Assembly: GCA_964220215.1 (NCBI GenBank)
Contig: CAXPTH010000003.1
Span: 70,216 to 134,215, forward strand
Source of the DNA: Alteromonas sp.
GTDB lineage: Bacteria > Margulisbacteria > Marinamargulisbacteria > UBA6595
Reading direction: 5' to 3'
Length of the DNA stretch: 64,000 nt
Shown here: piece by piece, positions 58,136 to 58,516 of the stretch
Layout of the letters: the number at the start of each line of letters is the position of its first letter
Numbering within the stretch: position 1 is the first letter of the stretch
Translations under genes and position numbers: made by a program
The notes under the pieces: generated by a model
Told to the model about the DNA's origin: nothing
Databases searched by the model: none
Seen by the model: only the letters and a program-made list of their open reading frames with translations

Positions 58136-58260
58136 CTCGCAAACAGCAACGCACGCCCATCCTGCTGCACCGCTGCCAGCACCACCTCACGATCAGCCTT
58201 CAATGCCTCACTCGCATACTCCAACGAACGCCAATCCGGCTCAATCCGTTTCGAATCCCC
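58081..58260 (-). pseudogene. start-less C-terminal fragment of a DUF4116-like repeat protein
   Basis: My minus-strand translation reads GDSKRIEPDWRSLEYASEALKADREVVLAAVQQDGRALLFASQELQRDPDVLAAAKRPR*. The frame opens right after a TAA and has no start codon. It is about 85 percent nucleotide-identical (by eye, ~75 nt) to the 29.7-kb fragment. Confidence 0.6.
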
Positions 58261-58304
58261 TTATCTTTCTTATGGTTATATCGTGGCGCGCCCGGAGGGA
58301 TTCG
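58239..58304. repeat. 66-bp direct repeat, copy 1 (displaced tRNA-Arg 3' end plus downstream flank)
   Basis: gctcaatccgtttcgaatccccttatctttcttatggttatatcgtggcgcgcccggagggattcg is identical, letter for letter, to 58395-58460. Confidence 0.95.
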
Positions 58305-58394
58305 CCCTTCTTGAATACTCACGTATTCAGCCGGGCAGCTCCTTTCGCTTAACTCAGTCCTTCGGCCTTCGCTCTTCCTCCCTACTCGGTCGGC

Positions 58395-58460
58395 GCTCAA
58401 TCCGTTTCGAATCCCCTTATCTTTCTTATGGTTATATCGTGGCGCGCCCGGAGGGATTCG
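58395..58460. repeat. 66-bp direct repeat, copy 2 (overlaps the intact tRNA-Arg 3' end)
   Basis: Identical to copy 1. Its last 21 nt (58440-58460) are the acceptor/T-arm 3' end of tRNA-Arg including CCA. Confidence 0.95.
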
Positions 58461-58516
58461 AACCCCCGACCTGCGGATTCGAAGTCCGACGCTCTATCCA
58501 GCTGAGCTACAGGCGC
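58440..58516 (-). tRNA. tRNA-Arg (anticodon TCG)
   Basis: The reverse complement, GCGCCTGTAGCTCAGCTGGATAGAGCGTCGGACTTCGAATCCGCAGGTCGGGGGTTCGAATCCCTCCGGGCGCGCCA, folds by hand into a cloverleaf. The acceptor is 7 bp with one G-U pair, the D arm is GCTC/GAGC, the anticodon loop is CTTCGAA and the T arm is GGGGG/CCCTC. CCA is encoded. There is one U-C mismatch at 27:43. Confidence 0.85.

Follow-up and report, generated by a model that had tools for sequence, protein, structure and literature searches.

The window, as we call the whole 64-kb stretch of DNA that was analysed, carries an intact tRNA-Arg(TCG) gene together with a displaced copy of the 3' end of this gene. The following features lie at the locus or bear on its interpretation:

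34780-35796, plus strand: IS3-family element with an HTH orfA and an rve orfB (Pfam rve, HTH_21 and rve_3), left end TGACCCC at 34780
57578-58135, plus strand: gamma-carbonic-anhydrase-like hexapeptide-repeat gene (Pfam Hexapep), convergent with the tRNA gene
58081-58238, minus strand: DUF4116 pseudogene fragment (Pfam PF13475, E = 4e-11; TRF period 75), abutting the distal repeat copy
58239-58304, minus strand: distal 66-nt repeat copy, a displaced tRNA 3' fragment plus 45-nt trailer
58395-58460, minus strand: proximal 66-nt repeat copy, tRNA nt 56-76 plus the 45-nt native 3' trailer
58440-58516, minus strand: intact tRNA-Arg(TCG) with encoded CCA (ARAGORN; Rfam RF00005, full length, 68.2 bits)
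58536-58564, minus strand: predicted sigma-70-like promoter (TTGTCA-17-CATAAT, 10/12, from a consensus scan only), about 20 nt upstream of the tRNA gene

The two 66-nt copies are 100% identical, both in a repeat search and in a direct string comparison, and in the latter the identity ends abruptly at both edges. In the proximal copy, the last 21 nt of the tRNA gene (58440-58460) run from C56 of the T-loop through the CCA; the displaced 21-nt fragment lies at 58284-58304, in direct orientation relative to the intact gene. Read in the sense of the tRNA, the order in the window is the tRNA 5' part (56 nt), a copy A (66 nt), a spacer B (90 nt, 58305-58394), a second copy A and the DUF4116 fragment. 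A sequence-only reading of the window had described a perfect direct repeat of 21 nt of tRNA plus 45 nt of flank, with 156 bp from start to start and 90 bp between the copies, and all of this was confirmed by the repeat search, the string comparison, ARAGORN and Rfam. A perfect repeat of 66 nt cannot have arisen by chance in 64 kb.

The tRNA gene is well conserved: its first 73 nt are identical across all related contigs, and in the gene of the sister species L012 a single base of the acceptor 3' strand is changed (GCGCACCA). Since a consensus scan found no match to an intrinsic terminator downstream of the tRNA gene up to the array, the array is probably co-transcribed with the tRNA. A search of Rfam at E ≤ 10 over 57000-60000 reported two tRNAs only, and the spacer had no match. 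On each strand, the unit of 156 nt (52 codons) has one open frame (58239-58522 in the window), which gives rise to spurious ORFs that run through the tRNA gene and the array in public protein sets, for example P0001 (129 aa) and P0002 (160 aa). An exact-protein look-up of both spurious ORFs of the window array returned no record.

Relatives of the locus were found by an exact look-up of the DoxX-like neighbour protein and other neighbours and by a metagenome scan for the B|A junction. A search of a protein database with the two-unit translations of the open frames added L124 and L125. In summary, the comparison set holds about 18 contigs of the same species and of two sister species, one of them represented by the Tara Oceans contig L125. 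The sequence-only reading had proposed to compare the tRNA-Arg locus in related genomes, and the comparison was informative: the locus carries a tandem unit of variable copy number, and the sister species have a single copy. Among the approximately 18 contigs, the 156-bp unit is present in 1, 2 or at least 3.4 copies:

L006: A-B-A-B-A-B..., at least 3.4 units that differ by SNPs, up to the end of the contig within the array
L002 and L103: A-B-A-B(1-34), then Z; two units
Window and L011: A-B-A, then the DUF4116 pseudogene
L124: A-B-A, with the DUF4116 junction as in the window, then the thiG side
L061: A-B-A(1-47), followed by a different junction
L005: one A, followed by B(1-14)
L001-type: one A in each of the six contigs
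L125/L126 and L012 (sister species): single copy

In L006 the units repeat every 156 bp exactly, and the first two units of the window, L002, L103 and L061 have the same spacing of 156 bp. The core of the tRNA 3' end recurs in L006 at offsets 56, 212 and 368; in the other four, it lies at 56 and 212. In L124 the exact match to the core is seen only at offset 56, because an indel makes the units of this contig 1 nt longer.

Could the repeat be an artefact of assembly, with a de Bruijn path that was collapsed or looped? The window's copies do not differ from each other, as one would expect in such a case, and several contigs stop precisely at the repeat (L007 within the tRNA, L006 within unit 3). 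L011, a contig of an NCBI MAG (GCA_964218795.1), agrees with positions 54611-64000 of the window base for base (9.4 kb), including A-B-A, and may come from the same genome. However, different assemblers arrived at this architecture independently in at least six samples, and in the metagenome assemblies L002, L103, L006, L061 and L124 the copies can be told apart by SNPs or indels, which rules out a looped assembly graph. We therefore give an artefact next to no credence. The unit exceeds typical k-mers in length and the window's two copies show no difference, so that the one full unit and the partial one seen there have to be read as a lower bound for the copy number.

The single-copy relatives show how much of the unit is native to the locus. 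In L125, the 45-nt trailer follows the tRNA gene and leads into the initial 33-34 nt of B, after which come CGAAAAGGTGATCGT... and the thiG side. In L005 the native continuation is present in part, namely as the first 14 nt of B. Of the 90 nt of the spacer, 34 are thus native trailer (L125, L005); native contiguous DNA makes up 100 of the 156 nt of the unit, and the other 56 nt (F) are absent from the single-copy relatives. The unit and the partial unit after it can be divided as follows:

58361-58460, minus strand: 100-nt native block N (21 + 45 + 34 nt), collinear with the single-copy L125
58361-58394, minus strand: first 34 nt of the spacer (GCCGACC...GGCCGAA in the tRNA sense), continuation of the native trailer, with a boundary accurate to about 2 nt
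58305-58360, minus strand: 56-nt junction insert F (GGACTGAGTTAAGCGAAAGGAGCTGCCCGGCTGAATACGTGAGTATTCAAGAAGGG in the tRNA sense)
58239-58304, minus strand: the distal copy as a shortened second N, cut at nt 66 by the junction with the DUF4116 pseudogene

The 45-nt trailer also aligns with the trailer of L012 (local score 38 versus 20±3 for shuffles, p < 0.001). In L002 and L103, the distal copy extends 34 nt further into native sequence than that of the window, and the terminal partial unit reads A-B(1-34)-AAGGTGATCCT..., collinear with L125. Since the single copy of L125 has the trailer and nt 1-34 of the spacer, the repeat in the complete allele of L002 and L103 amounts to 100 bp of native DNA. 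And since the terminal unit of these contigs runs into the native continuation of the L125 type (AAGGTGATC...), the array is N-F-N-Z and not an element flanked by att sites. Judging from this collinearity, the sequence before the duplication appears to have been the 100-nt N followed by Z, and the complete array tRNA5'-N-F-N-Z.

The sequence-only reading had seen an att-like scar in the repeat. The geometry does indeed mimic attL and attR, with an intact tRNA gene and a displaced direct 3' fragment that begins in the T-loop. A regenerated tDNA accompanied by a displaced fragment is the diagnostic geometry of islands on which the Islander principle relies, together with the demand for an integrase, and the T-loop is one of the two common crossover sublocations, at which about half of the tRNA-targeting integrases cross (PMC4383910). 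Decayed ICEs or IMEs that have kept attL and attR, known as CIMEs, and tandem accretions are on record as well (PMC5704250). On this account, an element with a T-loop-specific tyrosine integrase would have decayed to a CIME-like remnant of 56-90 bp, or an att-only mini-element would have moved in trans, and the tandem copies would reflect repeated integration or accretion. The single-copy relatives could then be seen as 'empty' sites. Furthermore, a T-arm-like inverted repeat (GAAGGG-CGAAT-CCCTCC) is preserved at the F|N junction, no source was found for F, and some phages, among them Nitratiruptor phage NrS-2, have candidate attP regions that match the tRNA 3' end by itself.

On the other hand, the block of identity holds between 45 nt (window) and 79 nt (L002/L103) of host-native trailer, which is conserved in the unduplicated species; this part was not supplied by an attP, since a foreign attP would not carry host flank. 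No tyrosine or serine integrase was found beside the tRNA gene in the gene tables of about eight haplotypes or among the window ORFs scanned with Pfam. The earlier statement that the window has no integrase thus holds for tyrosine and serine recombinases among the scanned ORFs; the window does contain the DDE (rve) transposase of the IS3-type element (35071-35796), which belongs to another enzyme class and lies 23 kb from the tRNA gene. F is just 56 nt long, and no arm sites can be recognised in it. Viral contigs (three scans), phages and plasmids gave no match to F or to the trailer but only to the tRNA 3' end, and a search for the whole spacer likewise returned no copy from phage, plasmid or viral collections. 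Finally, the SNPs are not divided into an element type in the proximal copy and a host type in the distal one; in L061 the proximal copy is of the native type. What stands of the att-like scar is its geometry, and what does not is the foreign origin of the repeated block. All in all we consider an integrase scar, including its explanation of the tandem copies, unlikely, though not negligibly so.

A copy of F was found neither elsewhere in the 64-kb window (both strands) nor in the 126 loci nor in the syntenic DNA of the relatives, and a metagenome scan for the spacer or the B|A junction led to no place besides the tRNA-Arg locus itself; in an 18-mer metagenome scan, 70 of the 72 loci were chance matches. 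F contains a 7-bp hairpin with a GTGA loop. Several possible origins were considered and rejected. The spacer is not recognisable as a decayed tRNA, for its local alignment to the tRNA or to the 5' part of the tRNA is not significant (p = 0.3-0.4). F and the 56-nt tRNA 5' part agree in 12 of 56 positions in a manual ungapped comparison, and their equal length (56 = 56) is probably a coincidence. No significant similarity was seen on either strand that would make F a diverged copy of Z, of the 3' end of DUF4116 or of the flanks in L012 or L061. A MITE, one of the options in the sequence-only reading, or another small IS-derived element is contradicted by the lack of terminal inverted repeats around the spacer, by the size of the duplication (66-100 bp) and by the lack of dispersed copies in the window and in the 126 loci. 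A CRISPR-like or casposon-like insertion with target duplication was dismissed as well, as there are no inverted repeats and all 'spacers' are identical. We know of no system that makes a target duplication of 66-100 bp.

A junction insert that looks genomic could be accounted for without a recombinase if the locus had been remodelled in two steps. A kilobase-scale tandem duplication starting at C56 of the T-loop would have been deleted for the most part, and F would be the last 56 nt left of it. The locus has indeed been rearranged repeatedly, as seen in its five or more distal junctions, a deletion at a GGCGC microhomology and a 23.4-kb segment that is present or absent. However, as stated above, no further copy of F was found on either strand of the window or of the relatives' syntenic DNA; in addition, two events are required. 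We regard such a two-step history as improbable.

Within one genome, the copies share variants that are private to it. For example, both copies of L124 have the private indel (GAAAGAAACAGGGG), both copies of the window have the C..C variant and both copies of L061 have A..T. This sharing indicates concerted evolution. At the same time, L002, L006 and L103 have different numbers of units despite 100% identity over the 677 bp upstream. The F|N (B|A) junction is common to the window and to L061, whose clade is 95.6-97% identical to the window, and the distal cut at nt 66 forms the same DUF4116 junction in the window and in L124. Since the duplication spans lineages that have diverged by about 4% and since its copies are homogenised, their perfect identity is no sign of a recent event, although the sequence-only reading had taken it for one; the same junctions in diverged lineages and the private indel in both copies of L124 speak against recency. 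A local rearrangement had been listed there among the options, and this option comes close to what the evidence favours, apart from its supposed recency.

The explanation that we favour, and that we hold to be rather probable, is that the tRNA-Arg gene anchors a tandem duplication of variable copy number, of which the repeat is one allele. An ancestor of the species would have duplicated the 100-bp native block N, from C56 of the T-loop through the CCA and the 79 nt of conserved 3' trailer, in direct orientation. The 56-nt F would have been placed at the novel junction, giving tRNA5'-N-F-N-Z with its period of 156 bp. We infer that the initial event was an error of replication or recombination rather than a site-specific integration, possibly a template switch or a larger tandem duplication that deletion shortened afterwards. 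From then on, unequal crossing-over, slippage and gene conversion between homologies of 100-156 bp may have altered the copy number, and the same processes of recombination would have kept the copies alike within each genome. The distal end would have been cut by independent illegitimate truncations, that of the window being an old junction with the DUF4116 pseudogene shared with L124. As far as can be judged from the sequence, nothing points to any function of the extra copies, and the tRNA gene stays intact. There are also arguments against a tandem duplication. A clean one leaves no filler, and no source was found for the 56-nt F; long templated insertions are unusual in bacteria; and the left boundary in the T-loop is a coincidence if duplications occur at random.

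The trailer deserves a separate look. Its 79 nt (58361-58439) are approximately 92% identical to L125, as compared to 82-87% for the flanking coding DNA of this contig. L012 is only about 78% identical in the tRNA-Arg region, yet it keeps the trailer motif GGGG(A)TTCGAAACGGATTGA. Potentially, the trailer may be a functional 3' external transcribed spacer. One could go further and suppose that it gives rise to a small RNA or a processing element derived from the 3' ETS, and that the duplication would raise the dosage of this RNA, each unit having a tRNA-like 3' end. Both observations on conservation would fit such an array of functional RNAs, as would the probable co-transcription with the tRNA. 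But the trailer shows no covariation and only a weak consensus fold in alifold, with folding z-scores of -1.7 and -1.8 (a functional structure of the spacer was rejected on the same grounds), and it has no match in Rfam. In addition, the lineages differ in copy number, and several healthy ones carry just one unit. We find this explanation very improbable. Even if we take together the two cases in which the locus would be more than a passive duplication, namely that the 156-bp unit is an att-only module moved by a T-loop-specific recombinase encoded elsewhere, or that the array multiplies a functional trailer RNA, we concede them only a small chance.

Among the haplotypes, the distal end of the array has at least five different junctions within about 300 bp, and the surroundings of the array are a strain-level hotspot of rearrangement. 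One of the participants is DUF4116. Its 75-nt repeats are found at 58097-58241, a paralogue lies at 29707-29838, and in L002 (11003-14164) DUF4116 genes of 248 aa and more than 626 aa are located beside the array. DUF4116 scars flank the array in most haplotypes of the species. In this organism, the DUF4116 repeats make up a multi-copy, recombining family. The scars at most arrays and the paralogue at 29.7 kb indicate that the fragment in the window is a product of recombination between local paralogues and not island cargo; the proposal that it is the leftover of a deleted island was not borne out.

The last approximately 55 nt of the DUF4116 fragment are antisense to the 3' end of the hexapeptide gene. 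This gene adjoins the tRNA array in some haplotypes only, and in L002 it is a pseudogene. In the window, its ORF ends with ~18 codons (...CYRGRLAAASTSGSRCNS, 58081-58135) that come from the antisense strand of the DUF4116 pseudogene, and therefore its C-terminus appears to be chimeric. In the six L001-type contigs, which are approximately 96-97% identical to the window, a 5-nt GGCGC microhomology joins the trailer to the hexapeptide gene, of which the first 72 nt are left (L001:10480-10640 versus 57582-57653 and 58390-58398 of the window), and the contigs then continue into the window at about 29620. From a comparison of the two arrangements, the fusion is the exact product of a microhomology deletion in a window-like arrangement.

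The IS3-family element sits exactly where the synteny with L061, L124, L125 and L012 breaks. In these four contigs, the tRNA-Arg side abuts the thiG side (~34.3-34.8 kb of the window). In the window, 23.4 kb (34.78k-58.18k) lie between the tRNA array and the thiG side, its ancestral neighbour. An island was considered for this segment and rejected, as it carries housekeeping genes (rho, nrdAB, pyrC and fba), in addition to an AcrB-like pump and recD2. Rather, the segment looks like a translocation, a rearrangement associated with the IS or with DUF4116. Two side observations concern this region. Beside the IS3 element there is a 155-aa ORF (35800-36267, minus strand) with a weak match to the ubiquitin family (PF00240, E = 1e-4, below the Pfam cut-off), and a related copy of it (82% in nucleotides) is found in L002 beside the DUF4116 genes. 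The nrdB gene is a single ORF in the window (54468-55631) and in L120, and in the MAG GCA_041240485.1 (L118:3900-4991) it is in two pieces of 249 and 90 aa, due either to a frameshift or to an assembly error.

What does the locus mean for the interpretation of similar sites? The displaced direct repeat of a tRNA 3' end is widely used as a diagnostic of islands, and the present case calls for caution, as here it would stem from a local duplication of native DNA. Pipelines for island finding that do not filter for an integrase would mis-call the tRNA-Arg array, and the perfect identity of the copies at such loci would be misread as recency. The locus also marks a strain-level hotspot of rearrangement in an uncultured bacterium of a candidate phylum. 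Its loose ends are the origin of F and the unusually conserved trailer of the tRNA-Arg gene.

Compared with known systems, the locus resembles the attL/attR pairs of tRNA-integrated islands in its regenerated intact tRNA, in the displaced direct 3' fragment and in the start in the T-loop (PMC4383910). It differs from them in that there is no integrase and no cargo, the interval is only 56-90 bp, 45-79 bp of the identity block of 66-100 bp are host-native trailer, and the copy number varies as that of a tandem array of identical units. With CIMEs it shares a non-autonomous stretch between two att-like repeats at a tRNA 3' end, and CIMEs in tandem are known, too (PMC5704250). However, CIMEs are of kilobase scale, their element genes can be recognised, and related elements have a cognate integrase, whereas here the 56-90 bp contain no recognisable element-derived sequence and no cognate element was found.

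The sponge 3'ETS-leuZ of E. coli is an RNA made from the 3' external transcribed spacer of a tRNA. The conserved trailer described here, probably co-transcribed with its tRNA, is similar to it in this respect; unlike 3'ETS-leuZ, it gives no sign, as judged from its sequence, of a stable RNA, a target or a structure. Closest are the bacterial VNTRs and minisatellites, with which the array has in common the constant head-to-tail period of 156 bp, the polymorphism in copy number, the concerted evolution and the partial terminal unit. Two features set it apart from them: 56 nt, roughly a third of the unit, do not come from local sequence, and the array starts inside a tRNA gene, in the T-loop, so that each extra unit carries a fragment of the tRNA 3' end. 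We see the locus as a further and fairly ordinary case of a known phenomenon, a tandem duplication of the VNTR kind that mimics an att scar.
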